Origin: an uncultured Bacilli bacterium
GTDB taxonomy: Bacteria > Bacillota_I > Bacilli_A > RF39 > UBA660
DNA length: 64,000 bases
Assembly (NCBI GenBank): GCA_947625535.1
Contig: CANQOR010000002.1
Coordinates: 9,507 to 73,506 of the forward strand
Direction of reading: 5' to 3'
Shown here: piece after piece, positions 8,970 to 38,836 of the stretch
Layout of the letters: the number at the start of each line of letters is the position of its first letter
Position numbering within the stretch: the first letter of the stretch is position 1
Program-made: the position numbers and the translations under genes
The notes under the pieces: model-generated
Told to the model about the DNA's origin: nothing
Seen by the model: only the letters and a program-made list of their open reading frames with translations
Databases searched by the model: none

Positions 8970-9084
8970 CTGTTATTTAATTATACTATATCTTTTAAAA
9001 AAATAAAAGTCTTTACAAAATAGCACTATTTTTTAAAAGAAACATAAATTAATAGTGAGATATATGTATGAAAGGGTGAGATAT

Positions 9085-9525: not shown

Positions 9526-9534
9526 AAAGAAGTA

Positions 9535-11201: not shown

Positions 11202-11212
11202 AGTATCACCTT

Positions 11213-11665
11213 TTATTTTATATAACCCATTGCTTTTAATCTTGATTCAATTTTAGTTTTTGTTGCTTCACCAACTAAACGATTAGCAGTATTAGCTTCT
11301 TCACCATCGACAATAAAGACTGTTGTAGGTGTACCACTTATGTTAGCAATTAACTTTAATTTGTTATTTTCTTCGTTACTTATTTGATCAGTTTGAATTT
11401 CGTAGGCTGTTATATCATATTTAGCTAAAACTTCTTTAAAACCAGGTTTAAAAGCTAGACAGTGAGCGCAATCACTTTGAGATATAAGAAGAATAAAAGA
11501 TTCTTTATTATTAATTTTAGTTTCTAATTCACTATAATTTATTAAAACTAAATGTTTATCTTCATCAATTTCTTTTCCTTTTAAAACACTACTTGAATAA
11601 ATAACACCAATTAAAGCAGCAGCAATTACTATTATTACTAGAAATGTAATAGCTTTCTTCTTCAT
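11213..11665 (-). CDS. membrane-anchored thioredoxin-fold thiol:disulfide oxidoreductase
   Basis: N-terminal TM anchor, CAHC active site and a GTPT cis-Pro loop. Divergently oriented from the Tad-like cluster. Confidence 0.75.
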   Translation of the reverse strand: MKKKAITFLVIIVIAAALIGVIYSSSVLKGKEIDEDKHLVLINYSELETKINNKESFILLISQSDCAHCLAFKPGFKEVLAKYDITAYEIQTDQISNEENNKLKLIANISGTPTTVFIVDGEEANTANRLVGEATKTKIESRLKAMGYIK

Positions 11666-18394: not shown

Positions 18395-18907
18395 ATGAAG
18401 GAAAGTTATTGGGGCTATTGGTTTGTAATCTTTGGTGTTTTTATAGCAGTTGTTATGTTACTTACTAATGATGCAACTACATCTAATACTCAAGATTATT
18501 ATCAATTAAAAGAAGTAGCTAATAGTGCCTTATATGATGCAATAGATTACAGTTATTATGCGCAAACTGGTCAAATAAGAATCTTAAAGGAAGTTTTCGT
18601 TGAAAACTTCCTAAGAAGATTCGCTGAAACTGCATCAATTACAGACAGCTACGAAATTCAATTTTATGATTTATATGAATCTCCTCCTAAAGTAAGTGTC
18701 AAAGTTTCAACAAAAACGGCAGGATTTATAATCGGACGTGATGTTGCTGAAGATCCTGGTGACCCTTCATCAGCTATGACTGATTTAGATGTTGTTAACT
18801 CAATAGATTTAATAATTGAATTTGATCCTGTTAATATTACTTGTTCTGGTGATAATTGTAGTAGTGATAAAATGACTAAACAATATTGTGATTATTATCC
18901 TGTTTAG
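18395..18907 (+). CDS. pilin-like (minor pilin / TadE-F-like) protein
   Basis: MKESYWGYW followed by a single N-terminal hydrophobic helix. It shares the M-K-x6-W9 + TM layout with ORFs 26721 and 27250 and sits between the giant gene and cpaB-like. Confidence 0.4.
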   Translation: MKESYWGYWFVIFGVFIAVVMLLTNDATTSNTQDYYQLKEVANSALYDAIDYSYYAQTGQIRILKEVFVENFLRRFAETASITDSYEIQFYDLYESPPKVSVKVSTKTAGFIIGRDVAEDPGDPSSAMTDLDVVNSIDLIIEFDPVNITCSGDNCSSDKMTKQYCDYYPV

Positions 18908-19756: not shown

Positions 19757-21244
19757 ATGAACGAGAAGAATATATTCTCTCAGATGGACTTTGGACCATT
19801 GTCTGAGTTTCTTGAAGATGATGACGTTACCGATATTTCTTATAGTAACAGTGGTCAAGTTTGGTTAAAAACATTATCAAGAGGTGTTTATCAAGTTGAA
19901 AGACCTGATATAAACAATCCTTTTATGGAAAAGTTAGCGTTCCAATGTGCGAATGTTATGGGACGTACTTTCAATATGGCACATCCATTTTTGGACTCAG
20001 AAAGTGCCGAATTACGTATGAACTTTGTACACGATTCCATTGCTACCAATGGAATCGCGTGTTTGATACGTAAAACTCCTGCTAAAATTCGTTTAAATAA
20101 AGATAAATTATTAAATGAACAATATATTACTGAACAAATGCATGATTTTTTAATTAAATGTGTTTGGGGACATTGCAATATCTTAATTGCAGGAGAGACT
20201 GGTTCTGGTAAAACAGAACTTGTTAAGTATTTGGCTAGTAATACTAAAGAAGATGAAAAAATCATATCTATTGAGGATACTTTGGAACTTCACTTAGATA
20301 AGATTTTCCCTCATCGTGATATTGTGGCAATGAAAACTAATAATATAGCTTCTTATACAGATGCGTTAGTAGCCTGCATGAGACAGAACCCTATATGGAT
20401 ATTACTTGCCGAGGTTCGTTCAGCAGAAGCAGTTATGGCAGTTCGTAACTCTATTTCTTCTGGACACCATATTATTTCAACTATCCACGCCGATAAAGCA
20501 TCAAGTATCCCAATGCGTATGTACGCGTTACTTGAAGGTAGTCAAGATATTGAACAATATTTATCTTCAATTCATAGATATGTTCAAATTGGAATTTACG
20601 TTAAAGGTTATTATTCAAAAGCCTTAGGAAGATTCCAACGTGAAATTATGGAAGTTTGTGAATTCTATGTTGATGATGAAACTAATAGACCTAAGTCTAA
20701 TATGTTATATTCTAAAACATTAGATGGTAGAGTTACATTACATAATCCTACTAAGAAGTTAATAGATTATTTAGCAATAGGTAATGTTTATTTTGACACC
20801 GATGATATTTTCGGTTTGGGTGATGCTGACTCTAAAGAAGATTTATCTAATTTAAGAGATAGTTCAGCTGATAATTTTGCTAATAAAGAAACAAAAAATA
20901 AATTAATCGATGCACTAAATAACGGAACTCCTGCTTCGGAAGCAACTACTAGTAGTGAAGGAGACATTGAGTCATTGGAGGAAACTCCTGCAGAAGCTTC
21001 TACGCCTGCACAAACTCCAGCAGTAACACCAGCGCCACAACCAGTGGCACAAAGTAGTGTTGCTACTCCAGCTCCTACACAGACAGTTGCACCTGCTGCC
21101 CCTGCACCAGCTACAACTGCTGCTCCTAAAGCGACAGAGACTCCAACACCTAGTATTTTCCCGACTATTTCTGTACCTACACAGCAGGCTGGTGGTCCTA
21201 CAGGTATTCCAACTCAAGTTGCTTCGACGAATGATGTATTATAA
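19757..21244 (+). CDS. tadA: CpaF/TadA-type secretion ATPase (VirB11/T2SSE superfamily) with a Pro/Ala/Thr-rich C-terminal tail
   Basis: Walker A GETGSGKTE, Walker B-like ILLAEVR, and a His box region STIHAD. The tail after about aa 390 is low-complexity P/A/T. Confidence 0.85.
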   Translation: MNEKNIFSQMDFGPLSEFLEDDDVTDISYSNSGQVWLKTLSRGVYQVERPDINNPFMEKLAFQCANVMGRTFNMAHPFLDSESAELRMNFVHDSIATNGIACLIRKTPAKIRLNKDKLLNEQYITEQMHDFLIKCVWGHCNILIAGETGSGKTELVKYLASNTKEDEKIISIEDTLELHLDKIFPHRDIVAMKTNNIASYTDALVACMRQNPIWILLAEVRSAEAVMAVRNSISSGHHIISTIHADKASSIPMRMYALLEGSQDIEQYLSSIHRYVQIGIYVKGYYSKALGRFQREIMEVCEFYVDDETNRPKSNMLYSKTLDGRVTLHNPTKKLIDYLAIGNVYFDTDDIFGLGDADSKEDLSNLRDSSADNFANKETKNKLIDALNNGTPASEATTSSEGDIESLEETPAEASTPAQTPAVTPAPQPVAQSSVATPAPTQTVAPAAPAPATTAAPKATETPTPSIFPTISVPTQQAGGPTGIPTQVASTNDVL

Positions 21245-21259
21245 TAAGAAGGTGATAAT

Positions 21260-22153
21260 GTGGAATTAGTTATATGGTTAGTAATAGCAATCTTTGTTTT
21301 AGCTTATCGATATAATACAGGTGATAATGTTTATAAGTTCTTTGCTGATACTGTTGCTAGTGTTTATAATACATATGCTCCATATAGTTATCGTGAAGTT
21401 AAAGAAAAGACTAAAGAACTTGGATATGAGTATTCCCCAAGGCAGTATGCTATGCAAGTATTATTGATGGGTGGTGCTGCTGCTGGTATTACTTTCTTAT
21501 ATTTTTATAGTATTCCAGTTTCAGTTGTATATACAATTATTGCTGTATGTTTTGTGCCTTATTTAAATTATTTAAGAACACAAAGATTATATAGTGAATA
21601 CTTATTTGAACAAGTACAAGTTTATACAACTAACGTTATTATGGAATTTAATACAACTCAAAGTTTTGTTAAGTCATTAGAAGGTGTTAGAGATTCTGGT
21701 ATCTTACAAGATCCTGTCTTAAGAGATGTAAAAAGAATGATTCAAATGGCTTATGACAATGGTACTATAGATCAATCAATAGAATTCTTTAATCAAGCTT
21801 ATCCATATTATATGGTTAAGAATATGCACCAATTGTTCTTACAAATTACTAAAGAAGGTGCAAGAGATTCAGGAGAAGCTCTTGAACTTATGTCAATGGA
21901 TATAGATGCCTTAGTAGAAGGTGTATACCGTGATAGAATGGATAGACAAACATTCCATAAGAAATTCTTAACATTTGGTATGGCGTTGTTCTTATTAGTT
22001 TTGGTTATGCAACTATTATTTGGTCGTACTGAGTATTTAGCAATGTTAGAAAAAATATATGTAAAATTAATATTACATGCAATTATTATTGTAAATTGCT
22101 TCTTCTTAATTAGTGGTGAAAAATATTATAATGAAGATGTGGGGGTTGAGTAG
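21260..22153 (+). CDS. tadB: TadB-like platform protein (T2SS-F family)
   Basis: GTG start after an AAGGTGA RBS. TM helices flank a helical cytoplasmic domain with the T2SSF-like pattern (…SFVKSLEGVRDSGILQDPVLRDVKRMIQMAYDNG…). Confidence 0.65.
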   Translation: MELVIWLVIAIFVLAYRYNTGDNVYKFFADTVASVYNTYAPYSYREVKEKTKELGYEYSPRQYAMQVLLMGGAAAGITFLYFYSIPVSVVYTIIAVCFVPYLNYLRTQRLYSEYLFEQVQVYTTNVIMEFNTTQSFVKSLEGVRDSGILQDPVLRDVKRMIQMAYDNGTIDQSIEFFNQAYPYYMVKNMHQLFLQITKEGARDSGEALELMSMDIDALVEGVYRDRMDRQTFHKKFLTFGMALFLLVLVMQLLFGRTEYLAMLEKIYVKLILHAIIIVNCFFLISGEKYYNEDVGVE

Positions 22154-22155: not shown

Positions 22156-22944
22156 ATGTATTTTGAGGTAATAATTATAGGAATAGTTGCATTTATTGTA
22201 TTAACAGTTAATGGTTATATTAAACCTAATAAATTTATTCAAGATAACCAAGATTTGTTTATGAAACTAAAAGAAGATGATTATGACTTCTTAGTAAGAG
22301 CTAAATATGGTGATGGTCTTGATTCTGATGTTTTATATCAAAAAAGAATTAAAAATGGTTTAATTATTATAATATTAATGATATTTATTATGATATCAAA
22401 TTTAACATTAGTTAAAATAGTATTAGCTTGTGTTGCTGGATATGGAATGTTTAAGTTAGATTATTTAAACTTAAAAAAATTCTATAAAATGCATTTATTA
22501 CAAATAGACTCAATGTTACCTTATTACTTAAAAGGTTTAGAAATATTAATTCAACACTATACTGTTCCAGTTGCTTTAGGTAAATCAATATCTGATGCTC
22601 CTGAAATATTTAGAGAAGGATTAATAGATATGATTAATAAAATAAATGCTGGTGATTCAACTGTTACTCCTTATATGGAATTTGCGCAGATGTATCCAGT
22701 TCGTGATTCAATGCGTATGATGCGTTTGCTTTATCGTTTAAGTTTAGGTCGTCAAGAAAGAAAACAAGAACAATTAATTACTTTCTCTAAGACTATTTCA
22801 AACTTACAACAAAAAGCTCGTGAAACTAGATATAAAGAACGTTTAGACAAGATGGAAAGTAAGACCATGAGTATGCTTGTATGTACAGGTATTGGTGTTA
22901 TGATTCTACTTGTTATAGCAGTTGTTAATATGATAGGTCAATAA
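22156..22944 (+). CDS. tadC: TadC-like platform protein (T2SS-F family)
   Basis: Same architecture as the upstream paralog (…LPYYLKGLEILIQHYTVPVALGKSISDAPEIFREGLIDMINKINAGD…). 2-nt gap after tadB. Confidence 0.65.
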   Translation: MYFEVIIIGIVAFIVLTVNGYIKPNKFIQDNQDLFMKLKEDDYDFLVRAKYGDGLDSDVLYQKRIKNGLIIIILMIFIMISNLTLVKIVLACVAGYGMFKLDYLNLKKFYKMHLLQIDSMLPYYLKGLEILIQHYTVPVALGKSISDAPEIFREGLIDMINKINAGDSTVTPYMEFAQMYPVRDSMRMMRLLYRLSLGRQERKQEQLITFSKTISNLQQKARETRYKERLDKMESKTMSMLVCTGIGVMILLVIAVVNMIGQ

Positions 22945-23020: not shown

Positions 23021-26000
23021 ATGAAAAAGAAAGTAATTATAATAGGAGCAGGACCAGCCGGTTTAACTGCTGCTTATGAATTATTAAATAAAAATAAAGA
23101 TTATAATGTTACTATTTTAGAAGAAAGTAATTCTATTGGAGGAATTTCTAAAACAGTTAATTATAAAGGAAATAGAATGGATATTGGAGGACATCGCTTT
23201 TTCTCTAAAGAGGCTAGAGTAAATGAGTTTTGGCAGAACATAATGCCAATACAAGGTAAACCTTCTTTTGATGATAAAGAGTTAAAAAGAACGAAAAGTT
23301 TAGTAAAAGGTGGACCTGATCCTGAAAAAGAAGATAATGTCTTTTTAATTAGAAATAGAGTTTCAAGAATTTTTTATTTGAAAAAGTTTTTTGATTATCC
23401 AATTAGTATGAAATTACAAACTTTTAAAAATTTAGGACTTGTAAGAACTATTAAAAGTGGTTTTAGTTACTTAAAAAGTATATTTATAAAAAAGAAGGAA
23501 GATTCGTTAGAAAACTTCTATATAAATCGTTTTGGTAAAGAATTATATTCTACTTTTTTTGAAAAATATACGGAAAAGCTATGGGGAAGACATCCTAAAC
23601 AAATATCTGCTGATTGGGGTGCTCAAAGAGTTAAAGGTTTATCAATAATTGCGGTATTAAAAGATTCATTTGGTAAATTGTTTCATAGAAAAAGTAAAAC
23701 TAAAGAAACATCTTTAATAGAAGAATATATTTATCCTAAATATGGACCTGGTGAATTTTGGGAAATTGTAGCTGATGATGTTACTAAGATGGGTGGAAAA
23801 ATTCTTAAAAATCATCAAGTGGTACATATTAATAATGATAATAATGTTATTAACTCAGTTACGTGTTTAGTTAATGGCAAAGAAAAAGAAATAAAAGGTG
23901 ATATTTTTATTTCTAGTATGCCAATTAAAGACTTAATATGTGATATGAATAAAGTACCTAAAGATATTCATAAAATTGCTAAAGGTTTACCATATCGTGA
24001 TTTTGTTACTATTGGTGTTTTAGTTAAGAAATTAAATTTAAAGAATGAAACGGATATTAAGACTTTAAATAATATAATTCCTGATTGTTGGATATATGTT
24101 CAAGAACCAAATGTTAAGTTAGGTAGAATACAAGTATTTAATAACTGGAGTCCATATATGGTAGAAAAACCTAAAGATACATTATGGATAGGTTTAGAAT
24201 ATTTTTGTAATGAAAATGATAAGTTTTGGAATATGAGTGATAAAGAAGCTAGTGAATTTGCGATAAGCGAATTAGAAAAAATGGGAATTGTTAATAAAGA
24301 TGATGTTATTGACACTCATCGTGAAAAAGTTAAAAAAGCTTATCCAGCTTATTTTGATACTTATACAGAAATAGATAAAGTAATAGAATATTTAAATAAA
24401 TATGATAATTTATATTGTATAGGTCGTAATGGACAACATCGATATAATAATATGGATCATTCAATGATGACAGGAATGAAAGCTGCTGATTGTATTATAA
24501 ATAATGATACAAATAAAGATGAAATTTGGAATGTTAATACTGAACAAGAATTTCATGAAGAAGTTAATAGTGATAAAAAAAGTAAATTTATAGATAAAAT
24601 TAAAAATATTAAAATTAATAAATGGGTTTTAATGTTATTAGTAACTGCTGTTATTATGGTATGGTGGGGCTTATTTAGTTATTGGCATATTGATAACGAT
24701 TCGTGGTTTTTACTATCTCATGGAAGATATGTTTTTGAACATGGACTTCCAACGATAGAACCTCTTACAATGCATGAAAATTTAAATTTTATAATGCAAC
24801 AATGGTTATTCTGTGTATGTCTTTATTGGGCATTTGTTCATCTTGGTAAATTTTTCTTATTTGCTTTTACAATAGGATTTAGTTTTATTTTATTATTTTT
24901 CTTTTATAAAATGTGTATGTTGGTTAGCAATAAGAATTATATTATTTCTTTTGTAATGTCTTTTATAATGTTATTTTTATTAATGACAAATAAATTTATT
25001 GTTACTAGACCACAAACATTTACTTTCTTGTTTTTGTTCTTGGTAGTTTATGTTGTAGAATTATTTAGAAAAAAGGGAAACTTTAAAGTATTATTTTGGT
25101 TACCTGTTTTATCTGTTATTATGATTAATTTTCATGCATCTATGTGGTGGTTTATGTATATTTTTATGTTACCTTTTATAGCAGAAGGAATGTATGAAAA
25201 ATTGATCTTGAAGAAAAAAAATGTATATGATTATAGATGGCTCATTATAATTTGGTTATTTATGTTTTTAGCAGGATTTATTAATCCCTACGGGGTTAAA
25301 GCTATTAATTATTTTGTTTCATCTTATTCTGGATTAGCTACTGATATTATACTTGAAATGAGACCTATACTTATATTTAATAGTATGGGAATAGAAACTA
25401 TTTTATTATTAGCAATTTATGTTATTGTGTGTATGTTACATTATAGTAAATATAAGGAATTTAAAGTTAGTTATTTTACAATGCTATTTGGTTGTGTTGT
25501 TTTATCTTTAATGGCAAGAAAAAGTTTTCCATATTTAGCAATGTTTTCTGTTTATCCATTAGCTTATTATGGTAAAGATTTATTTAGAAATAATTGTATG
25601 GAAAAAGCAAATATTATTCCACCAAAAATAATTGGTAAACTATTAGTTATAGTAGTTTTAGTAAGTTTAATTGGTTTAGATATTTATTGTGGAAAACAAT
25701 TAATTAAAAATACATCACATTATTATATTGAGGAAGGTGTAGATAAACTTTTAGAAAAATATGATCCTAAGACAATGAAAGTTTATTGTAATTATGATAG
25801 TGGTGGATATCTTGAATGGAGAGGTATTAAACCATTTATTGATACGAGGGCAGAAGTATTTTATCCTCAAATGAATGGTGGTTATAATATTTTTGAAAAT
25901 TATTGGACTGTTCAAATAGGAACGGGAAATGTAAATGAATTTTTAAAATTATATGATTTTACTCATTTGGTAGTTTTATACTATGATAAATTATATGCTT

Positions 26001-26086
26001 ATGATGAATTTGATGGTTATGAACTCTTTTATGAAAAAGAGGGAGGGTATAAAATATACGTTAAGAGTGATTTAAATAGTGAGTAA
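23021..26086 (+). CDS. fusion protein: N-terminal FAD/NAD(P)-binding oxidoreductase domain + C-terminal polytopic membrane domain (GT-C-like glycosyltransferase candidate)
   Basis: Dinucleotide-binding motif [17 protein letters not shown] and GGHRFF. From about aa 535 there are ten or more TM helices with an acidic first-loop motif (HIDNDSW), then a roughly 150-aa soluble C-terminal domain. Confidence 0.6.
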
Positions 26087-26171: not shown

Positions 26172-26441
26172 ATGAAGGAAGCTACAGGTGAATTAAACTT
26201 AACTGTTATTACAGTTGTTGCTATTGCAGCAATTGCAGCGTTAGTTACAATATTTATTTACCCTCAAATCCAAGCTAACATTATGATTTCTACAGCTTGT
26301 ACTAACCTTGATGCAAAAGGTAATTATACATCATTAGATGATAATGGTACTGCTTCTAATAATAATGTTTCTTGTACTAATTTCAATTGTACTGCAAAAT
26401 ATAATGGTCATACATATACTAGAACATGTTCTGGTGCATAG
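26172..26441 (+). CDS. small pilin-like protein (major pilin candidate 1)
   Basis: 89 aa. MKEATGEL + 22-residue hydrophobic helix + Cys-rich globular tail. AAAGGA RBS. Confidence 0.55.
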   Translation: MKEATGELNLTVITVVAIAAIAALVTIFIYPQIQANIMISTACTNLDAKGNYTSLDDNGTASNNNVSCTNFNCTAKYNGHTYTRTCSGA

Positions 26442-26466
26442 AAATAAATTTTGAGGTGATTAATTA

Positions 26467-26712
26467 ATGAAAGAAGCTACAGGTGAATTAACAGGATCTG
26501 TAATTGTTGTATCAGTCGTTGCTTTGCTTACGGCTTTTTTCTTTATGTTCGTTTGGCCAAATGTAAAAGACAATATGAATGATAGGGCACGATGTGCAGA
26601 TGCTCTTTGTGATAATGGTTACAATAGCAATGGCATGGCATATTGTAAGGTACCAGATGATTCTGATAATCCTGATGATACCCCAATATTTGAATGCCCT
26701 TTTAGAGGGTAG
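26467..26712 (+). CDS. small pilin-like protein (major pilin candidate 2)
   Basis: 81 aa with an identical MKEATGEL N-terminus, a hydrophobic helix and 4 Cys in the tail. GAGGTG RBS. Confidence 0.55.
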   Translation: MKEATGELTGSVIVVSVVALLTAFFFMFVWPNVKDNMNDRARCADALCDNGYNSNGMAYCKVPDDSDNPDDTPIFECPFRG

Positions 26713-26720
26713 GTGTTATT

Positions 26721-27239
26721 GTGAAAGAAGCAATAGGTGGTACTTGGATTATGGGTGTTGTTATAGCGTTTTTAGCGCTATTTACAACATTTGTTAGTGT
26801 TACAACTAATTATTCAAGATGTTATAAAATTAAAGATGAAGTTTTACTAACTATTGAAAGGAATCATGGTTTAAATAAAGATTCTATTGAAGCAATAAAC
26901 TCTTATTTAAGTAGTTTAGGATATTCTGCTACAGGAAAATGTCCTGATGATGGATGTTGGTATAGGTTCTCTACTAGTTCTAGTACAGCAGTAAATTCTT
27001 CTAATAAAGTAAATTATTGCGTACAAAAACATACTGTAACAGAGAGATATCGTGCTGGAGATGAAGTCTATGTTACGGGACCTATAGGTCATCCTGAGTC
27101 TGCTTATTATGAAGCAGTTATATTCTTTAGATTAGAATGGCCTATTTTAAATACTTTATTTAACATAAAAATAAGTGGTGAAACACCGATTATCTTTATG
27201 CTTAAGGATGATGCTATTGAGCATGCTAATTGTAAGTAG
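26721..27239 (+). CDS. pilin-like (minor pilin / TadE-F-like) protein
   Basis: GTG start. MKEAIGGTW + TM helix. Shares YSR(C/S)(Y/F)KIK(D/N)EVL with the next ORF. Confidence 0.45.
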   Translation: MKEAIGGTWIMGVVIAFLALFTTFVSVTTNYSRCYKIKDEVLLTIERNHGLNKDSIEAINSYLSSLGYSATGKCPDDGCWYRFSTSSSTAVNSSNKVNYCVQKHTVTERYRAGDEVYVTGPIGHPESAYYEAVIFFRLEWPILNTLFNIKISGETPIIFMLKDDAIEHANCK

Positions 27240-27249
27240 GTGATAAAGA

Positions 27250-27861
27250 ATGAAAAATGGGATAGTAAATGTCTGGTTATGGGGACTTATTATTGTATTT
27301 ATCGGTTTTTTCTCTGCTTATATAATTATTACTCTAGAATATTCTAGGTCTTTTAAAATAAAAAATGAAGTCTTAACGATTATTGAGAAAAATAAAGGGG
27401 TTACTAGAACTGATAAAAGAAATAGAAGTGGTGTCTCAAAAATTTCAACGGGAGCCACAATAACTACTAATGTTAATACTATACAAACTATTAATCTATA
27501 TTTATTAGGTAGCGGTTATACTGCTAAAGGACAATGTCCACTAGATGAATATGGTGGTATTTGGTATGGTGTTAAAGATTTAGGTAAGTATAATGATCCA
27601 GCAAATGATATAGTAAAAATTACTTCTAGTACGGTTAAAGATAAATATTATTACTGCTTTTCAAAATATAATGCTAATTTAAAGGGCGGTATGTATAAAG
27701 CTGTTTATTATAGAGTTGTTTTATTCTATAAGTTTGAAGTTCCAGCTTTATCTGAGTTCTTATCTGTTCGTGTTGATGGATTAACTGATGAAGTATATGA
27801 TCCACAAGATGAAAGTCAAATTGAAGAAAGTACAGCAAAGGTATATAAAAAGATTCCATAA
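27250..27861 (+). CDS. pilin-like (minor pilin / TadE-F-like) protein, paralog of 26721
   Basis: MKNGIVNVW + TM helix + EYSRSFKIKNEVL. Confidence 0.45.
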   Translation: MKNGIVNVWLWGLIIVFIGFFSAYIIITLEYSRSFKIKNEVLTIIEKNKGVTRTDKRNRSGVSKISTGATITTNVNTIQTINLYLLGSGYTAKGQCPLDEYGGIWYGVKDLGKYNDPANDIVKITSSTVKDKYYYCFSKYNANLKGGMYKAVYYRVVLFYKFEVPALSEFLSVRVDGLTDEVYDPQDESQIEESTAKVYKKIP

Positions 27862-27879: not shown

Positions 27880-28977
27880 ATGAATGTTATAGTGGCAAAT
27901 AAATATTCTGCTATGTTGTCTAGCTTGAGTAATAAAATTGATTTAATTAAAACAGTTGATGGTGAATTTCAAGTAGATGACTTGGTAGCACAGTTTGATA
28001 ATTTTTTCTTTAATAAAATGATATTAGATATTACTGCTATAGCAGGATATCAAGATATTTCACAAATCCAAAGATTATCTTTTGGAATGGATATGTCTAA
28101 AATAATATTATTATTAGATGATTCTCCAGTTGTAAATTCACCACAATATTTATCTGAATTGGTATCTATGGGAATTTATAACTTTACAAGAAATATTGAT
28201 GCTATTACATACTTAATAGATAATCCAAATACATATAAAGATGTAGCACAATTCCATATGATAGGAGGTTCTGCTCCTATGATGGGTGGAGGTGCACCAC
28301 AGCAATATGCTGGAGGTAATAACTCTGGTGGTATGTTTGGTGGTAATAGAGCTGCTCAAAATGAAAAAAATTTTATTAATTCAAGTATTGCTATGCCTGG
28401 TATAACAGGTACTAGAATAATTGGAATTAAAGATTTAACTGATCATGCAGGAGCTACTACATTAGTTTATATGTTAAAAAAACAATTATCTGAGAATTAT
28501 TCGGTATTAGGATTAGAATTAGATAAAAATGATTTCTTATACTTTAATGATCCTGACTTAAAGAGTGTTAGCAGTAAAGAATTAAATTCTATTATTAAAA
28601 ATCCTATTAATAATTATAATGTAATATTAATAGACGTTAATGATAGTTCAGAAGGTGCTAATTGTACAGAAATGTTATATTTAATAGAACCTTCAACATT
28701 AATGTTAAATAAAATGATAAGAAGAGATAGAAATATCCTTGATAAAATAAAGGGTATGAAAGTTGTTTTAAATAAAAGTTTATTAGATCCAAATGATGTA
28801 AGAGAATTTGAAGCTGAAGCAAGATGCAGTGTATTCCATAATATTTCACCATTGGATGACAAAAAAGATAAACATAGAGTATTAGATGAGCTTTTAAATA
28901 AGCTTGGTTTTGATAAAAACAGACCTGCTAGCGAAGGTAATAAATCAGCTAGATTATTTGGAATTGTAAAAGAATAA
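27880..28977 (+). CDS. tadZ: TadZ/CpaE-like protein: receiver-like N-domain + ParA/MinD-fold domain with a degenerate P-loop
   Basis: The N-terminus has an alternating receiver-like pattern. A G/M/Q-rich linker follows. The C-domain has IIGIKDLTDHAGATT where KGGxGK[ST]T is expected, then VILIDVN and VVLNKS strands. Confidence 0.45.
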   Translation: MNVIVANKYSAMLSSLSNKIDLIKTVDGEFQVDDLVAQFDNFFFNKMILDITAIAGYQDISQIQRLSFGMDMSKIILLLDDSPVVNSPQYLSELVSMGIYNFTRNIDAITYLIDNPNTYKDVAQFHMIGGSAPMMGGGAPQQYAGGNNSGGMFGGNRAAQNEKNFINSSIAMPGITGTRIIGIKDLTDHAGATTLVYMLKKQLSENYSVLGLELDKNDFLYFNDPDLKSVSSKELNSIIKNPINNYNVILIDVNDSSEGANCTEMLYLIEPSTLMLNKMIRRDRNILDKIKGMKVVLNKSLLDPNDVREFEAEARCSVFHNISPLDDKKDKHRVLDELLNKLGFDKNRPASEGNKSARLFGIVKE

Positions 28978-29044: not shown

Positions 29045-29362
29045 ATGTATTTACTAGTTAACTTTTGCGCAGATACTAAAGATATATGGCAAATAGTAGG
29101 TAGAATTTTAGGTGTATTTAAAATCGTTATTCCACTATTAATTATTATATTTGGATGTATTGATTTAGGAAAAGCAGTTGTTGCTTCTGATGATAAGGAA
29201 ATTAAAAAAGCATTAAAGCAATTAGCTATGAGAGCTGTTGCTGGTATTGCAATTTGGTTCGTACCTACATTAGTTAGTTTAGTATTCAGCTTAGTTGAAG
29301 TAAGTTCAAATGGTGACTACGAGGTATGTAAAACTTGTATTACTAGTCCAGATGGATGCTAA
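29045..29362 (+). CDS. VirB2-like T4SS pilin-type small membrane protein (paralog 1)
   Basis: 105 aa, two TM helices joined by a charged loop. Aligns with the next ORF (VFKxxxPLL...F...D..KA...K..R.V..I...F.P.L). Cys-rich C-terminus CKTCITSPDGC. Confidence 0.45.
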   Translation: MYLLVNFCADTKDIWQIVGRILGVFKIVIPLLIIIFGCIDLGKAVVASDDKEIKKALKQLAMRAVAGIAIWFVPTLVSLVFSLVEVSSNGDYEVCKTCITSPDGC

Positions 29363-29417: not shown

Positions 29418-29450
29418 ATGATATAATTTCAATGATATGAGGTGTTTTCT

Positions 29451-29846
29451 ATGTATAGAAAATTGTTATTAATTATGACTATAATTTTAGGGGGATTCTT
29501 TTTAGTTAGTAATAATGTTATGGCTATAGATAATTCTTATGATGTTCACTATTCTTTAGCTGGTAGAACTGCTGATGAATGTGGTGGGGTTTTTGATGAA
29601 GAAGTTATAGAGTTTTTACAACAAGTTTTTAATGTGTTTAAATATGCTGCTCCTTTATTGTGTTTAGCTTTTTCAATTATGGACTTTTTAAAAGCTACTG
29701 CTAGTCAAGAGAAAGAAGCTTTGTCTAAGGCAGCTAAAACAACAGGTAAAAGAGTTGTATATGCTATAATTTTGTTTTTTATTCCTAATTTAATTAATTT
29801 CTTATTTAATTTATTAGGTTGGTATGGTACGTGTGGTATTAGTTAG
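29451..29846 (+). CDS. VirB2-like T4SS pilin-type small membrane protein (paralog 2, with signal peptide)
   Basis: Start set at ATG 29451 after a GAGGTG RBS. Signal peptide (…SNNVMA/ID), then a two-TM hairpin homologous to ORF 29045. Confidence 0.5.
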   Translation: MYRKLLLIMTIILGGFFLVSNNVMAIDNSYDVHYSLAGRTADECGGVFDEEVIEFLQQVFNVFKYAAPLLCLAFSIMDFLKATASQEKEALSKAAKTTGKRVVYAIILFFIPNLINFLFNLLGWYGTCGIS

Positions 29847-29858: not shown

Positions 29859-32759
29859 ATGCTAGTATTATTTAGTCTAGGTGATACTATTAAATCTGGT
29901 ATAATTGGTATTTTATTAACTTTAGATACTTTTATTTATGGTTTAATTGGTTCTGCATTTAGAATATTTATGGCTATTGCTAGTGCAAGATTATTATCTT
30001 CTGATGCTTATTATGAAGTTGCAAATAGAGTTTATGTAATTATAGGTGTTTTAATGCTATTTGTTCTTTCATATGCAATTTTAAGAGGTATTATTGATCC
30101 TGATCAATCTATGAAGGGTGATTTAGGACCTAAAATGGTTAAGAATGTTGTAATTGCGGTAGTAGGTCTTGCTATTACACCTGTTATTTTTAATTTATTA
30201 TATCAAGCACAAAATTTATTTTTAGAACATGATGTTTTAGCTAAAATATTCTTTAGAAGTAATAGTGATTTAAGTGTTAATTTAGGTTCTTCTTCGGTAA
30301 CTGTTGGAGATCAGTCAACTTCTGTTGATCCAAACGTAAGTGTAGATGATAAGATTAAAGAAATTGGTGGTTCTGTTACAGCAACCAATTTATGGGAAGC
30401 ATTTTTTCATCCAGCAGAAGATAGTGGAAAAACATCAGATGAAATTGAAGCTGACCCAAGTGATTACTTCTTAGCTGGTGGTGGATACTTACTGGCTTGT
30501 GCAGGTCTCGCTGTAGCAGCGGCTTTAGTTCCAGTCGGTGGTTGGATTTTAGGTGGAGCCGCGGTTGTAGCATGTTTGGCAGGTGTCTCGAATATTAATA
30601 GTGGTATAGAGGGATCGAAGATTACTGATGGAGATAAAATAACTTTATCGGAAGCGTATGCTTTAACTTCTGGTGGAGGTTCTTTTGGTATATATACTGT
30701 TTTCTTAAATAACTATATTGAAGATGGTGAAATTGAATACTTCTGGGGCTTATCAACAATAGCTGGTATTTTCGTTTTATATGCCTTTGTATCATTTAGT
30801 ATAGATATGGGTGTTCGTGCTGCTAAGATGGCTTATTATCAAATAATAGCGCCTGTACCACTTATTATGCAGGTTTTACCGTCTTTTAAAGATAATTTTA
30901 GACAATATACAAAATCTGTTGTATCAACTTTTATGGAAGTATTTATTCGTATTTCTGTTGTATACATAGTTGTTTATATTATTTGTCACTTATATGATTT
31001 GTTTTCTACAACTTCTGCCTTGTGGGCTAATGATGATTTGAATTCAATAGAAACTTTATTAGCGTTAGCACTACTTATTTTAGGACTTGTAGCATTTGCA
31101 AGACAAGCACCAAAGTTTATCTCTGAATCATTAAAATTAAATACAGGAAATATGAGTTTAGGTATTGGTAAGAAGTTCGCTGAGGGTGGTGGATTTGCTG
31201 CTAAAGCAATTGCTACTTCAGGTGTTAGAACTGCTGCTCAAAACTGGAATCGTAATAAAGATCAGAACTTTGGTCGAAGACTTGGTTCCGCTTTAGCAGG
31301 ATTTGGTTCGGCAACAGCAAGAAGTGCTTATGCTCAATTTGGTCCTGGAGCTAATCATAAGATGGCAATGGATAATGAATCATCTAAACGTGTTAGTGCA
31401 AATGCAACTAACGCGGCATATGATGCTGGTGTAAATAGAAAAGAACGTCAAGATAGACATGGAGCTGACGTTACAAACTTACAAAATGCACAAGCTGAGT
31501 TAGAAGCAGCTGAAGCTGCATATGATGCAGCTGTAGCTAGTGGTAATGCAGCTGATATTGAAAGAACTAGAGCTGCTCGTGATGCAGCAATTGAGAAAAC
31601 TAGAAAAGCAAGAGTTGCTTGGGTTGAATCTTCTGGAGCACTTGGAGCTGCAGCTACGGATGCTTATAAGAGAGCAACAGCTTGGGCTACTGGTACGATT
31701 GATTTATCTAAAGAAGAAGCAGATATCAAATTCGGTGCTGCTTTGGATGATATGAAATCTAAAACTCGTGAAGAAGCTTATAAGAAAGATGCTGTTTCTA
31801 AAGCATGGAAACAACAAATGGAAACATTACAAGCAACTAAGATTAGTGAATATCGTGAAGGTTGGGATGAAAATTCGTATAATGCTGAAATTCAACGTTT
31901 AACAGCAACTCAATTTGCTGATTTAAGAACTAAACAAAATGCTCGTGTGGCTGCTCAAAATGCTTTAGATGCGGCAGTAGCTGCTGGAGCACCAGCTGCA
32001 GATATTGCTACTTATACTGCAGCATTAACTGCTGCCCAAGCTGATGAGACGGCATCTAGATCAGCATTTGAATCAGCAAGAACAGCAGCTATTAGTAGCT
32101 TGGAAGGTGTGGCCAAGAGAAGTGATCTTGAAATGTCACAAGCTCGTACTGAATTACAATCTAAGATAGAAGCAACAAGAAGAACTATGGAAGCAGCTGC
32201 CGATGCTTGGGTAGCAGCAAATATCACTTCAAATCAAAATCTTCAAAATACAGTTCAAGGTGTTATTTCTCAGTATTCAGATTATATTTCACAAAATCAA
32301 ACACGTATGGTTACAACTTTGGATGCAGATGGTAATCAAGTTCAAGTTCAATTATCTGATTTACTAGCACCATTTGGAGCTAATGCTGCTACTAGTGCTC
32401 AAGTTGATTTTAGTAATATTAAACATCAAAATACTTTTGTTTTAGATGAAGTTGCTCCTGATGGTACTGTATCAAGTAAAACTTATAAGCGTAAATATAG
32501 GACTAATCCTGATGGAACTGAAACAGATCTTGGTTATGAGGATGAAAGTGGTGCAATGCTTTCTGCTAAAGAATTATTTGATAGAGCTTATAATAGTATG
32601 TCTAGAGATAATTCAAGAAAAATTACAACTCAGACTGCTGTTGGAAAAGTTGCTGATGATGGTAAAGGTGTTAAGAATGCTACACCACTTACTAGAGATT
32701 ACATTGATAAAGTTACTCGTAAGCGTCAAGCTGAAGAAAATAAAAATGGTCGAAGGTAA
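29859..32759 (+). CDS. virB6: VirB6/TrbL-like polytopic T4SS channel protein with a long Ala-rich coiled-coil C-terminal extension
   Basis: About 8 TM helices in the first roughly 420 aa, placed before VirB3/VirB4 as in Gram-positive T4SS loci. The C-terminal roughly 450 aa is A/E/K/R-rich heptad-like sequence. Confidence 0.6.
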   Translation: MLVLFSLGDTIKSGIIGILLTLDTFIYGLIGSAFRIFMAIASARLLSSDAYYEVANRVYVIIGVLMLFVLSYAILRGIIDPDQSMKGDLGPKMVKNVVIAVVGLAITPVIFNLLYQAQNLFLEHDVLAKIFFRSNSDLSVNLGSSSVTVGDQSTSVDPNVSVDDKIKEIGGSVTATNLWEAFFHPAEDSGKTSDEIEADPSDYFLAGGGYLLACAGLAVAAALVPVGGWILGGAAVVACLAGVSNINSGIEGSKITDGDKITLSEAYALTSGGGSFGIYTVFLNNYIEDGEIEYFWGLSTIAGIFVLYAFVSFSIDMGVRAAKMAYYQIIAPVPLIMQVLPSFKDNFRQYTKSVVSTFMEVFIRISVVYIVVYIICHLYDLFSTTSALWANDDLNSIETLLALALLILGLVAFARQAPKFISESLKLNTGNMSLGIGKKFAEGGGFAAKAIATSGVRTAAQNWNRNKDQNFGRRLGSALAGFGSATARSAYAQFGPGANHKMAMDNESSKRVSANATNAAYDAGVNRKERQDRHGADVTNLQNAQAELEAAEAAYDAAVASGNAADIERTRAARDAAIEKTRKARVAWVESSGALGAAATDAYKRATAWATGTIDLSKEEADIKFGAALDDMKSKTREEAYKKDAVSKAWKQQMETLQATKISEYREGWDENSYNAEIQRLTATQFADLRTKQNARVAAQNALDAAVAAGAPAADIATYTAALTAAQADETASRSAFESARTAAISSLEGVAKRSDLEMSQARTELQSKIEATRRTMEAAADAWVAANITSNQNLQNTVQGVISQYSDYISQNQTRMVTTLDADGNQVQVQLSDLLAPFGANAATSAQVDFSNIKHQNTFVLDEVAPDGTVSSKTYKRKYRTNPDGTETDLGYEDESGAMLSAKELFDRAYNSMSRDNSRKITTQTAVGKVADDGKGVKNATPLTRDYIDKVTRKRQAEENKNGRR

Positions 32760-32782: not shown

Positions 32783-33124
32783 ATGGATAATAACAATTTT
32801 CTAATTCCGGCGAACTCTAAAAAATCGCAAATGATTTTGAGTTTCTTTCGTCCAATTGATTTAGCAATATTTATAACAGGAGTTAGTATTACAATTTTAC
32901 TATTAGTAATAATTGATTCAAACGATATGAAAGTAATGTTTATGTTACTAGCTCCTGCATTAATTGCAACTTTCTTAGTTGCTCCTGTTCCTTATTATCA
33001 TAATGTTATGACATTAATGGGTAATATATATACATTTTATACAGGAAGAAAAAAATATTATTGGAGAGGTTGGTGTGCAAGATATGCCGATGATAGAGAA
33101 AGCAAACAACAACAACGTAACTAA
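32783..33124 (+). CDS. PrgI/VirB3-like small two-TM protein
   Basis: 113 aa with two adjacent TM helices, immediately upstream of VirB4. Confidence 0.5.
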   Translation: MDNNNFLIPANSKKSQMILSFFRPIDLAIFITGVSITILLLVIIDSNDMKVMFMLLAPALIATFLVAPVPYYHNVMTLMGNIYTFYTGRKKYYWRGWCARYADDRESKQQQRN

Positions 33125-33677
33125 TGTTGCTGTAGAACAATCTAGTAAATATAGTGAAGATTGGGTTCCTATAAAAAATATAATGAATGGAATGATTCGT
33201 CTAGATAATGGATATTATGTTACAGGAGTTAAAGTAGCTCCTAAAAACATCTTTATTCTAGATTCTGAAGATCGTGAAAGAGTTATATTTGAATTACAAA
33301 ACTTTTATAATATGATAGATTATGAATTTTGGTTAGTTGTAGCTGATAGACCGGTTGATATAAATTTATATTTATCACAATTACAACTTTTATATCAAAA
33401 AAGTGTAGATAGTGCAGTTAGAAAATTAATTATTCAAGATATTAATAAAGCTAATGCATTTATGGGTGCTGAATATAATGTAGTTGATACTGAGTATTTT
33501 ATCTTATTTAAAGAAAAAAGAATGGAAACTATTCAAAAGAGAATACATAATTTAATAGCTGGACTTGCTAATGCTTCAATAAATTCTACTCAAGTTTCAA
33601 ATGCTGATTTAAGAATGATACTTGATAACTTCTTAAATGGTGGTATGACTACTACTTTTGGGACGGTGAGAGCATAA
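33075..33677 (+). CDS. VirB4 N-terminal domain encoded as a separate polypeptide
   Basis: GGAGAGG RBS 5 nt before GTG 33075. The segment WVPIKNIMNGMIRLDNGYYVTGVKVAPKNIFILDSEDRERVI matches the conserved N-terminus of Gram-positive VirB4/TraE/PrgJ-type ATPases. Stop and next start overlap as TAATG. Confidence 0.55.
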   Translation: MQDMPMIEKANNNNVTNVAVEQSSKYSEDWVPIKNIMNGMIRLDNGYYVTGVKVAPKNIFILDSEDRERVIFELQNFYNMIDYEFWLVVADRPVDINLYLSQLQLLYQKSVDSAVRKLIIQDINKANAFMGAEYNVVDTEYFILFKEKRMETIQKRIHNLIAGLANASINSTQVSNADLRMILDNFLNGGMTTTFGTVRA

Positions 33678-35461
33678 TGAATATAAAAAGTGAAATAGCT
33701 CCAAAAGGTTTATTATTTAAACCTACGGAATTTATTATTAGTGGTAAATATGCAACTATATTAACAGTTATTAGTTATCCTAAATTTATTAATCCTGGTT
33801 TCTTATCAAATTTAACTAATATATCTGGAGTTAAATTAGTTGCTAAGCATATTCCTATTGAATTTTCAACATTACAAAGTATGTTAAATAAGGAAATAGC
33901 TGATTTAAAAGTACGTTATCAATCTGAACGTGATCAAACTATTCAAGAGCGAATTAGACAAGATTATGAATCATTAGAAAGTTTTATTTCAATGTTAGCA
34001 GCAACACAAGCTAGAATATATGATTTTCAATTACATATTATGGTTACTGCTGATAGTCCTGAAGAACTTGAAATGAAAAAGATGCAAGTTCGTAGTTATA
34101 TAGATGCTTTAGGAATGAAAGCAATATCATTGATGTTTGAACAAGAAAAAGTTCTTAAATCAATTATTCCTATATTCCCTAAACAAGATCTTGAAAATAG
34201 AATTGGTACACCAATTCCTTCAATTACAATTGCAGCTATGTATCCATTTGTTTTTGATAGTATAAAAGATCCTGGAGATTCAACTTTATTAGGTGTTGAT
34301 TTCTCTGGAGGTGTTATCTTATTTAATCAATTCTTATTTAAGATAAAGAAAGAACATAATAGAAATAATGCTAATATGATTATTTTAGGTACTTCTGGTA
34401 GTGGTAAATCTACAGCTGCTAAATTATTAATAAGAAGTCATATTAGAAATGGTTATAAAGTTATTTGTGTTGACCCTGAAGGTGAACTTGAAGAAATGTG
34501 CCGTAACGTTAATGGTAGTTACCTAGATTTAGGTAAAGGTGGCGATTATGGTATGATAAATCCTTTAGAGGTTGTACCAGATGCTGATCAAGAAGAGTTA
34601 GAACAAGGTTTAGGTTATACAGTTTTAACTAGAGCATTACAATCATTAAAAGCTTTTATGAAATATTATTCTCCTAGTATTGAAGAAGATGTATTAACAA
34701 TGTTTAGTGAAGTTGTACAAGATACTTATAAACGTTATAAAATAGATTTTGAAACTGATTTTTCAACATTAAGATCTGAAGATTTTCCTACTTTTGATGA
34801 TGTTTATGCAACAATTAAAGGTCGTTTATTATCAATGCCTGAAAAAACTCGTGAAAGAGATGTAATGGAAAGACTTGAGCTTAAAGTTAGACCTTTAACG
34901 AAAGAACTAAGATATTATTTCTGTGGACATACGACATTAAAAATTGATAGTAATATTATTGTTTTCAATATTAAAGAATTAATGAATAGTGATGAAAATA
35001 TTCGTAATGCTTTATTCTTTAATATCTTAAAGTTTGCTTGGGGTTTATGCTTAGATAAAGAAATGACAACATTATTATGTGTTGATGAAGCCCATGTTTT
35101 ATTATCTACAAGAAATGAACTTGGTGCTGAATTCTTAGCTCAAATGCAAAGACGTGCAAGAAAATATAACACAGGTACAATTATTATTACGCAACAACCA
35201 ACAGATTTTGCAGCACCTAACTTAATTGTTCATGGTAAAGCAATATTTGATAATGCATCTTATTATTTAGTAATGGGCTTGAAAAAACAAGCTGTTGAAG
35301 ATTTAGCTTTATTAATTGATTTAAATGAAAGTGAAATGAATAGTATTAAGAGTTATAATCAAGGAGATGCCTTATTTGTTTGTGGTAGTAGACGTATGAG
35401 AGTTCGTATTTTATGTACGCAAGAAGAACTAGATTCATTTGGATCTGGTGGAGGATTATAG
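33677..35461 (+). CDS. virB4: VirB4-type T4SS ATPase (middle + ATPase domains)
   Basis: IAPKGLLFKP...YPKFINPGFL segment typical of the VirB4 middle region. Walker A GTSGSGKST, Walker B LLCVDEAH. Confidence 0.85.
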   Translation: MNIKSEIAPKGLLFKPTEFIISGKYATILTVISYPKFINPGFLSNLTNISGVKLVAKHIPIEFSTLQSMLNKEIADLKVRYQSERDQTIQERIRQDYESLESFISMLAATQARIYDFQLHIMVTADSPEELEMKKMQVRSYIDALGMKAISLMFEQEKVLKSIIPIFPKQDLENRIGTPIPSITIAAMYPFVFDSIKDPGDSTLLGVDFSGGVILFNQFLFKIKKEHNRNNANMIILGTSGSGKSTAAKLLIRSHIRNGYKVICVDPEGELEEMCRNVNGSYLDLGKGGDYGMINPLEVVPDADQEELEQGLGYTVLTRALQSLKAFMKYYSPSIEEDVLTMFSEVVQDTYKRYKIDFETDFSTLRSEDFPTFDDVYATIKGRLLSMPEKTRERDVMERLELKVRPLTKELRYYFCGHTTLKIDSNIIVFNIKELMNSDENIRNALFFNILKFAWGLCLDKEMTTLLCVDEAHVLLSTRNELGAEFLAQMQRRARKYNTGTIIITQQPTDFAAPNLIVHGKAIFDNASYYLVMGLKKQAVEDLALLIDLNESEMNSIKSYNQGDALFVCGSRRMRVRILCTQEELDSFGSGGGL

Positions 35462-38762: not shown

Positions 38763-38836
38763 ATAAAAGGAATTACTCCTTTTATTTTTGACTTGTTATG
38801 TAGTATAATATTAATAGATTTGGGGTGTATAGTCTC

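Follow-up and report, generated by a model that had tools for sequence, protein, structure and literature searches.

A 64,000-nucleotide stretch of DNA from an uncultured Bacilli bacterium (GenBank assembly GCA_947625535.1, contig CANQOR010000002.1, positions 9,507 to 73,506; the whole stretch is referred to here as the window) encodes five proteins that share a short N-terminal sequence, the tag, followed by a hydrophobic helix. The question raised by this locus is whether these proteins are the subunits of a pilus and, if they are, what machine would assemble them. Two of the five are small (pil1 and pil2) and three are larger (min1, its paralogue min2, and a protein of the family DUF5411), and a preliminary description of the window had proposed that all are pilin-like. 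The tag, MKE[A/S]xG, is unlike every described prepilin motif, and we found no paper in the literature that describes these pilin-like proteins or their tag. We regard it as probable that the five proteins together make up the subunits of a Tad-like type IV filament which is integral to a type IV secretion system (T4SS) locus of the monoderm type found on the Bacillus plasmid pLS20. The new element would then be an undescribed subunit signal on a Tad-like type IV filament, hard-wired into a T4SS of this type.

The tag and the proteins that carry it

Among the 182 open reading frames (ORFs) of at least 40 amino acids in the window, exactly five begin with M[KR][EDNQ][ASG], namely those of pil1, pil2, min1, min2 and the DUF5411 protein, and all five continue after the tag with 20-25 uncharged residues. 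These are the five ORFs of the preliminary description, and their N-termini are as it gave them. Each is preceded by a Shine-Dalgarno sequence, and each start is the first start codon after a stop, so that translation from a standard start codon could not begin further upstream. All five families share a small residue at position 4. In pil1, pil2 and min1 the early glycine is that of M-[KR]-x-[ASG]-x-G, whereas it is residue 7 of the DUF5411 protein and residue 4 of min2 of the window; the tag consensus of the larger subunits is M[KR]E[AS][IM]GG[TI]W for min1, MK[NQDE][GS]I[AVS]N[IV]W for min2 and MKE[SA]YWGYW for the DUF5411 protein, in which it is kept in 53 homologues. Between families, the similarity detected by hhalign is limited to the N-terminal 26-38 residues (E 7.7e-5 and 0.002), and the DUF5411 protein resembles the min1 and min2 families only across its N-terminal ~40 residues (hhalign against the min1 family, E 0.002). 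These comparisons support a picture in which the five proteins would act like one set of major and minor subunits, with a shared N-terminal module and unrelated heads.

At E <= 0.01, a protein collection clustered at 90% contains 954 members of the small-subunit family; at E <= 0.001, the family accounts for 623 representatives in a set of 1.84 billion clusters at 50% identity. Most of the 120 relatives listed come from uncultured Bacilli, and none carries a functional name. Within the window, pil1 and pil2 both begin MKEATGEL and had been taken for a duplicated pair, which they are (35% identity, E 6e-12); across related loci, 63 ORFs correspond to pil2 and start with M[KR][EQ]A[TI][GS]EL. 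MKEATGEL is invariant in all 26 aligned homologues and opens 114 of the 150 best cluster representatives (50% identity), most of the others having conservative variants of the MKDATGEL, MKEASGEL or MREATGEL type. True family members among these 150 always match the profile from residue 1. Relatives with longer leaders were sought in the same set and none was found, the four exceptions being head domains behind other anchors. Among 102 distinct gene starts, codons 4, 5 and 6 are each represented by three or four synonymous codons with the amino acids fixed, and we conclude from this synonymous variation that the tag is selected at the level of protein rather than of DNA or RNA.

The remainder of the small subunits is far less constrained. 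Pairwise identity among 139 cluster representatives is 88% over residues 1-32 and 48% over the head, and residues 1-8, Thr11 and Pro31 are near-invariant, while 126 of the 139 heads have an even number of cysteines (2, 4 or 6). A variable, Cys-paired head on a conserved helix would look like the pattern expected of an exposed, disulfide-bonded domain carried on a polymerisation helix. Cys-rich heads of the pil1 type also occur without the MKEATGEL helix (P0356, P0408, P0363 and P0448), either repeated two or three times in tandem after an ordinary N-terminal transmembrane anchor or fused behind a different membrane domain.

Of the larger subunits, the DUF5411 protein matches Pfam DUF5411 (PF17424) with E 2e-50 and 170.6 bits, the cut-off being 30, and the match covers positions 1-132 of the 134 in the profile, to which the other four tagged proteins have no match. 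The sequence YSR(C/S)(Y/F)KIK(D/N)EVL, which the preliminary description had seen in both min1 and min2, is confirmed, and the two are paralogues (Table 1). Four of 43 min1 relatives have a weak match to DUF4320, below threshold. The public gene call for min1 (P0121, 162 amino acids) begins at an internal ATG and drops MKEAIGGTWI (26721-26750); the conserved start is the GTG at 26721.

The AlphaFold model of min1, built with 43 diverse homologues (predicted local distance difference test score, pLDDT, 86.6; predicted template modelling score 0.77), has a helix at residues 4-47, another at 53-65 and, after these, a β-sheet in which a short strand (81-83) precedes four long ones (99-112, 115-119, 127-140 and 145-154). 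That of pil1, built from 121 sequences, has a pLDDT of 78.9, a helix at residues 5-44 and four short strands. As modelled, the order of elements in both proteins is that of a type IV pilin.

The proposed assembly module and its genomic setting

The genes of the five proteins lie in a single-strand block (11774-41545; Table 1) that also encodes a candidate assembly machine. The ATPase, its proposed motor, scores against the NCBIfam VirB11 (3e-32) and TadA (4e-31) families and, in the PDB, against CpaF (6e-15), VirB11 (2e-14) and FlaI (4e-14). Other components were related by hhalign to a locus on a plasmid of Priestia koreensis (NZ_CP061869): the CpaB-like family to its SAF+RcpC protein (99.7%, E 7e-27), the TadB-like family to its type II secretion system (T2SS) F protein (93.8%, E 1.7e-7, 236 columns), the TadC-like family to the gene after the T2SSF gene (96.9%, E 1.5e-10, 200 columns) and the DUF5411 family to its DUF5411 protein (71.5%). 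The TadB-like family is highly conserved, with at least 7998 clusters, the best 120 of which are at 82-93% identity, and an alignment 89% identical per column; aligned with each other by hhalign, the TadB-like and TadC-like families show no similarity. We call the module Tad-like because of these profile links of the TadB-like, TadC-like, CpaB-like and DUF5411 families to the Priestia locus. Judged by these links, it is a Tad-like type IV filament machine, more than a T4SS plus an extra ATPase.

In species-representative genomes, at least 481 stretches were found to encode a relative, and the best 80 loci, all of them from uncultured gut Bacilli, "Tenericutes" or Candidatus Coprovivens metagenome-assembled genomes, were used for the comparison of gene order. 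The order is conserved: the secreted protein, the giant protein, the DUF5411 protein, the CpaB-like protein, the ATPase and two polytopic proteins are followed by pil1 (with or without pil2), min1 (with or without min2), the 365-residue protein and one to three T4SS_pilin genes, and these by the VirB6-like, VirB3-like, TraC-like, VirB4 and hydrolase genes. The Tad-like genes and the monoderm T4SS genes thus form one operon in essentially all related loci. Genes 3' of the hydrolase lie beyond the 10-kb flank of most of these loci; in the window a lipoprotein-like gene and the coupling protein gene follow, and homologues of both are found in one related locus (L054). Contigs from RNA sequencing agree with the locus without a difference (18679-18891, 21077-21320 and 26239-26519), and as the last of these crosses the pil1-pil2 junction, pil1 and pil2 are co-transcribed.

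The window is a chromosome segment of low GC content (24-26%) with housekeeping and sporulation genes (HisRS, TrpRS, SpmA/B-like, CotZ), and the block has a GC content of 30-36%. From the CotZ and SpmA/B-like genes we judge that the host is probably a monoderm spore-former with a thick wall. The flank upstream of the block (9055-11665, with CotZ, a metallophosphoesterase and the CPBP protease) is syntenic in at least 11 other species, at 32-46% protein identity, and for this reason the higher GC content of the block was not counted as a sign of recent transfer. No relaxase or integrase was seen in the T4SS/Tad block; given this and the syntenic flank, we rejected an integrative conjugative element (ICE), and the block gives the impression of a long-resident chromosomal system, not of a newly inserted conjugative element. 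The only NCBIfam affinities of the TraC-like and VirB6-like proteins (33075-33677 and 29859-32759) are to Mycoplasma ICE families, namely Mbov_0397 VirB4-like (E 1.4e-13) and the Mbov_0396 transmembrane protein (E 3e-4), which would fit a host lineage related to the Mollicutes.

Among the accessory genes, the 249-residue protein at the start of the block has no Pfam match. The giant protein belongs to no Pfam or NCBIfam family and has no LPXTG motif, although a sortase gene is present at 1783-2439. Large surface proteins occupy the same place upstream of DUF5411 elsewhere: pLS20 has a TIE thioester adhesin there, and Priestia an Ig-like protein. By this analogy the giant protein is possibly displayed by the filament or works with it. 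The oxidoreductase fusion is variable, being present in only ~5 of the 80 related loci and absent from the related locus L001. It matches Pfam Amino_oxidase and NAD_binding_8, its polytopic domain of ~500 residues has no family match, and the suggestion that it may be an optional pilin-modifying enzyme, acting for example in glycosylation, is speculative.

Table 1. Genes of the tagged proteins, the proposed assembly module and the T4SS, with the neighbouring protease gene (positions in the window)
Position	Strand	Feature	Remarks
10506-11201	-	CPBP (Rce1-like) intramembrane protease	Divergent; adjoins first block gene
11774-12523	+	First block gene, 249 amino acids	Sec-type signal peptide, C-terminal transmembrane anchor; homologues in the same place in ~21-25 loci
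12523-18378	+	Giant secreted protein, putative adhesin, 1951 amino acids	Signal peptide, (SGG)n linker near residue 500, many Cys
18395-18907	+	DUF5411 protein, proposed minor pilin-like subunit, 170 amino acids	MKESYWGYW, then transmembrane helix
18932-19729	+	CpaB-like protein	N-terminal transmembrane segment, SAF/RcpC-type domains; direct Pfam RcpC match weak, E 0.03
19757-21244	+	ATPase of the CpaF/TadA-VirB11-FlaI clade, proposed assembly motor	Pfam T2SSE E 7.6e-26
21260-22153	+	TadB-like polytopic platform protein	tblastn E 3e-5 to Priestia plasmid T2SS F-family protein
22156-22944	+	TadC-like polytopic platform protein	Same place in all related loci
23021-26086	+	PRK07208-family flavin adenine dinucleotide-dependent oxidoreductase fused to a polytopic half of ~500 residues, 1021 amino acids	NCBIfam PRK07208 E 1e-238
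26172-26441	+	pil1, proposed major subunit, 89 amino acids	MKEATGELNL, 21-residue hydrophobic helix, invariant Pro31, 4-Cys head
26467-26712	+	pil2, small paralogue of pil1, 81 amino acids	MKEATGELTG, 4-Cys head
26721-27239	+	min1, larger pilin-like subunit, 172 amino acids	GTG start, MKEAIGGTW; 94 homologues
27250-27861	+	min2, paralogue of min1, 203 amino acids	MKNGIVNVW; 27% identity to min1, E 3e-27
27880-28977	+	Cytoplasmic protein at the expected TadZ position, 365 amino acids	Kept in 78 loci
29045-29362, 29442-29846	+	Two VirB2-like T4SS pilin genes; T4SS part begins	Pfam PF18895 E 9.6e-8 and 0.0023
29859-32759	+	VirB6-like	Pfam/NCBIfam
32783-33124	+	VirB3-like	Pfam/NCBIfam
33075-33677	+	TraC-like	Pfam/NCBIfam
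33677-35461	+	VirB4	Pfam/NCBIfam
35539-38007	+	SpoIID+NlpC/P60 cell-wall hydrolase	Pfam/NCBIfam
38010-38762	+	Lipoprotein-like gene	In the monoderm-type T4SS part
38825-41545	+	Coupling protein	Pfam/NCBIfam

Weighing a filament against other explanations

The identification of the five proteins as pilins is partly supported, by genomic context, conservation pattern and predicted architecture; neither structural homology nor evidence of processing adds to this support. Structure prediction, which had been suggested as a check, gave the long N-terminal helix followed by a β-sheet in both pil1 and min1, but a Foldseek search of the two models against the PDB returned nothing at E < 0.001 and no pilin in either list. 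This is one of several results that weigh against a filament of type IV pilins. The tagged proteins have no match above threshold to the pilin families of Pfam and NCBIfam, and neither a Glu at +5 nor G/xxxxEY is found in them. The early glycine, which the preliminary description had reported for every one, is indeed present in the five window proteins but is not conserved in the min2 family, where the small residue is often Ser or Ala. An A24-family prepilin peptidase is absent from the window and from the 10-kb flanks of 82 related loci. On the side of the machine, the ATPase is not separable from VirB11 by score and so could serve the T4SS; the two platform proteins have no direct match to Pfam T2SSF or to NCBIfam and nothing meaningful in PDB profile searches, so that their assignment as TadB-like and TadC-like is transitive, through the Priestia locus; and the 365-residue protein was rejected as TadZ/CpaE, having no Pfam, NCBIfam or PDB match and an E value of 0.22 against the Priestia ParA-like protein.

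The searches against individual families agree with the earlier statement that the five proteins have neither the Flp motif G/xxxxEY nor the type IVa motif G/FxxxE, and Pfam gives no Flp or TadE match for any of them. Flp_Fap (PF04964) was not matched by the window proteins at E up to 1 or by 121 pil1 relatives at E up to 0.1. For the TadE-like families (PF07811, PF13400), min1, min2 and the DUF5411 protein gave no match, and one of 43 min1 relatives reached PF13400 at the noise level (E 0.092). The commonest weak Pfam match of the pil1 relatives is archaeal Pilin_N, which is below threshold in 16 of 121 members (best E 0.0014) and absent from ten more divergent relatives, and it was rejected as the family of these proteins on both grounds. 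None of the five proteins matches the VirB2-type T4SS pilin profiles (PF18895, PF04956). Sortase-assembled pilins would be expected to have a Sec signal peptide and a C-terminal LPXTG sorting signal; all five sequences lack an LPXTG motif and a C-terminal anchor, and the sortase gene lies far outside the block.

If the subunits are processed, the site and the enzyme have to be considered. Cleavage after Gly6, which we purely infer, would give Glu at +1 in 136 and Thr11 at +5 in 133 of the 139 representatives. Cleavage after Lys2, which would place Glu7 at +5, was also considered, and nothing was found in favour of that site. The preliminary description had noted that no A24-family peptidase is visible in the 64 kb, and this stands: scans of all ORFs for G.GD.K and for a looser A24-type motif were negative, and Pfam assigned the polytopic ORFs of the window to BacA, CmpB, VTT, Rce1-like and other families, never to Peptidase_A24. 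The same motif scan of all ORFs within 10 kb in the 82 related loci returned only a T4SS_pilin-like protein. The CPBP protease gene is next to the block in 11 of the ~19 related loci in which that side is visible, as part of the CotZ-phosphoesterase-CPBP flank; the protease could be a candidate for processing of the tag, or its position could be mere synteny. On the Priestia plasmid, a polytopic protein of 172 amino acids (L084 172-690) has Asp18 and SPGD74TK, reminiscent of the paired catalytic Asp motifs in A24 peptidases of the TadV type, and its gene lies ~4.5 kb upstream of the DUF5411 gene with two surface-protein genes between them. As an A24 peptidase it is a lead only, with no Pfam or NCBIfam match and no homologue in the window or the 82 loci.

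We propose the following mechanism for the Tad-like filament. The subunits would insert with the N-terminus inside and the C-terminus outside via their single N-terminal hydrophobic helix, leaving the tag M-K-E-[A/S]-x-G at the cytoplasmic face, where it may be recognised as a class-III-like signal. Most likely it would then be cleaved after Gly6 by an A24 prepilin peptidase encoded elsewhere, which would put Glu at +1 in the small subunits; use of the tag without cleavage is a real alternative. The ATPase and the two platform proteins would draw the subunits out of the membrane and build them into a polymer held together by their N-terminal helices, with the CpaB-like protein probably aiding passage through the envelope. 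In such a filament pil1 and pil2 would be the small, abundant-type subunits, their variable, disulfide-bonded heads forming its surface, and min1, min2 and the DUF5411 protein the larger minor or tip subunits, which would prime or cap it and may present the giant protein for cell-cell contact serving the neighbouring T4SS.

A more far-reaching version, which we consider somewhat unlikely, is that the proteins are a new class of filament subunit, with a tag that is left uncleaved or is cut by an enzyme other than A24, for example the syntenic CPBP protease, and that the filament is the missing mating pilus of the pLS20-type T4SS. If true, it would contradict the current view, by which Gram-positive T4SSs are devoid of pili and of VirB11-type ATPases. 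The absence of a nearby A24 peptidase, the failure of Foldseek to find a pilin and the equal scores of the ATPase as VirB11 and CpaF would also be compatible with there being no filament at all, the five proteins being unprocessed bitopic components of the T4SS or an adhesion complex, the ATPase being the VirB11 of the T4SS and the tag a cytoplasmic docking peptide for the ATPase or another channel component. That these genes share an operon with T4SS genes in practically all related loci is in keeping with this, and the pLS20 literature names the counterpart of the ATPase VirB11 (PMC8557374). We nevertheless regard this explanation as unlikely. VirB11-type T4SSs have no T2SS-F platform and no CpaB, both of which are linked to this locus by profile comparison; the Priestia module (DUF5411, CpaB, ATPase, TadB, TadC, DUF4320) has no T4SS gene annotated within the 18.7 kb examined, and because of this the module appears able to stand alone; and polymer subunits that are exposed typically combine an invariant N-terminal helix with a hypervariable, Cys-paired head.

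The close coupling of the module to a T4SS and a cell-wall hydrolase, in what is probably a thick-walled monoderm spore-former, would also suit a short pseudopilus, similar to ComG or the T2SS piston, that passes through the cell wall and opens or scaffolds the T4SS passage without forming a long adhesive pilus, and one small major with three larger minor subunits is the composition seen in pseudopilus systems. The strong diversification of the pil1 heads and their paired cysteines suggest exposure to the outside, which argues weakly against a pseudopilus, and a giant putative adhesin is encoded beside them. Head diversification apart, the observations would all be compatible with such a structure, but it seems to us improbable. 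That the C-terminal parts of the small proteins are Cys-rich and hypervariable, and that a CPBP protease gene adjoins the locus as often as it does, could alternatively point to exported bacteriocin-like or signalling peptides whose N-terminus is removed by signal peptidase or by this protease. We consider this extremely improbable: in contrast to a signal peptide that is to be discarded, the hydrophobic stretch of 20-25 residues is conserved more strongly than any other part of the protein and lacks an AxA-type site, the same N-terminus is found on three larger proteins with folded α/β domains, and the operon partners are filament-assembly genes.

Relatives of the locus and its significance

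Compared with known systems, the locus resembles Tad/Flp (type IVc) loci in having a CpaF-family ATPase, two adjacent single-domain platform genes and a CpaB-like SAF/RcpC protein in one operon, together with tandem small major subunits (80-90 amino acids) and larger minor subunits with a shared N-terminal module. It differs from them in that the window has no G/xxxxEY, no Flp or TadE match in Pfam, no nearby TadV and no recognisable TadZ, in that its platform proteins are too divergent for Pfam T2SSF, and in that the module is fused to a T4SS. Type IVa pilins and ComGC-type pseudopilins, which are processed by PilD or ComC, are like the tagged proteins in their six-residue Lys leader ending in Gly, ~20 hydrophobic residues and a kinking Pro, and in the αβ 'lollipop' architecture that the models predict. 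The Pseudomonas aeruginosa PilA leader is MKAQKG, followed by F, and is thus also six residues long; set beside each other, the two sequences are MKEATG/ELNMTVITVVAIAAVG...P for the small subunit and MKAQKG/FTLIELMIVVAIIG...P for PilA. The leader had been called very short, which was overstated, as six residues is the classical length of a type IVa leader. Unlike type IVa pilins and ComGC, the small subunits would have Glu at +1 and Thr at +5 instead of Phe or Met at +1 and Glu at +5, N_methyl and Foldseek matches are absent, and the ATPase of the window is of the CpaF/VirB11 and not of the PilB type. Substrates of the archaeal peptidase PibD tolerate very short leaders, do not need Glu at +5 and allow small residues at -1. 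The resemblance to archaeal type IV pilins with class III signal peptides (substrates of PibD, FlaK and EppA) lies in these properties and in Pilin_N being the commonest weak match of the pil1 relatives; however, these matches are sub-threshold and not reproducible, there is no Lys or Arg at -2, and the host is bacterial.

The best plasmid matches of the ATPase are to Bacillus plasmids of the pLS20 family (~31% identity, E 1e-24 to 3e-33; E about 1e-28 to 1e-31 in the comparison with pLS20), and the gene order in the conjugation operon of the Bacillus subtilis plasmid pLS20 (genes 34-54) runs parallel to that of the window. A TIE adhesin, p36 (126 amino acids), the ATPase p37 ("VirB11") and the polytopic p38 and p39 are followed by p40 (120 amino acids, N-terminally anchored), the tiny hydrophobic p41 and p42 (47 amino acids each) and a T4SS_pilin-like protein of 78 amino acids, and then by VirD4, VirB6, a VirB3-like protein and VirB4. 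The 78-residue protein of a pLS20-family plasmid (L083 17969-18205) matches PF18895 at E 1.3e-6, above the cut-off. Pfam identifies p36 as DUF5411 (E 1.4e-5), and hhalign relates it to the DUF5411 family of the window (80%, E 1.5e-5); p38, p39 and p40 have weak links to window families (E 0.03, 0.002 and 0.002), and p40 also matches DUF4320 weakly. pLS20 is a plasmid and encodes a relaxase, whereas the block of the window is on the chromosome and no relaxase was seen there. In the stretch of pLS20 examined, p36 is followed directly by the ATPase, with nothing at the place of the CpaB-like gene of the window, and the small proteins do not begin MKEATGEL. On present comparisons, pLS20 genes 36-41 with their "VirB11" are the closest studied relative. 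In the description of the pLS20 family, genes 36 and 38-47 are "unknown" and the ATPase of gene 37 is called VirB11; the same paper remarks that a VirB11 homologue is unusual in Gram-positive T4SSs and states that homologues of pilus components and of VirB2 are absent (PMC8557374). The report on the TIE adhesin adds that Gram-positive T4SSs are seemingly without pili and that TIE is not sortase-anchored (PMC8092201).

The Priestia stretch encodes an Ig-like surface protein, DUF5411, a SAF-domain protein, a ParA-like protein, a CpaF/VirB11 ATPase, a T2SS-F protein, a second polytopic protein and DUF4320. Its T2SS-F protein, annotated by NCBI as such, matches Pfam T2SSF (3.4e-5), and its SAF protein, which NCBI annotates as SAF domain-containing, matches SAF (4e-6) and RcpC (1.7e-4, below the Pfam cut-off). 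It differs from the window in having no T4SS gene annotated over the 18.7 kb examined and in subunits that start MSEG... or ...MG... and not MKE[AS]xG. A tblastn search of plasmids with DUF5411 gave no match. A "postulated secretion-related system" described from Clostridia likewise contains DUF5411 together with CpaF and PilC/GspF, its other genes being unrecognised (PMC9523054). We group the predicted secretion operon of Roseburia, Ruminococcus and Eubacterium from that paper with the Priestia locus as DUF5411-type Tad-like loci. With the window they have in common, behind a large surface protein, the order DUF5411, SAF/RcpC protein, CpaF, T2SS-F-like protein, second polytopic protein and small N-terminally anchored protein.

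A 2025 review holds that VirB11 homologues are universally absent from Gram-positive T4SSs (PMC12857230), and a 2025 paper on Patescibacteria says that Gram-positive T4SSs are without VirB2-type pilin genes (PMC12102498). The locus described here challenges both statements, as it combines in one operon a T4SS, a CpaF/VirB11-family ATPase, TadB-, TadC- and CpaB-like proteins, a five-member pilin-like set and VirB2-like genes. Hundreds of uncultured gut Bacilli, counted as species-level genomes, carry a T4SS locus of this kind. In the databases the family of tagged proteins is so far entirely "hypothetical", and at least one member has a mis-called start codon. The invariant tag provides a handle both for annotating this family and for finding the processing enzyme, if there is one. 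The finding bears on the question of whether Gram-positive T4SSs build pili, and the link to pLS20, which is genetically tractable, makes that question testable. The link also offers an interpretation of pLS20 genes 36-41, listed as "unknown", that can be put to the test, and suggests how the TIE adhesin, which is not anchored by sortase, could be presented.

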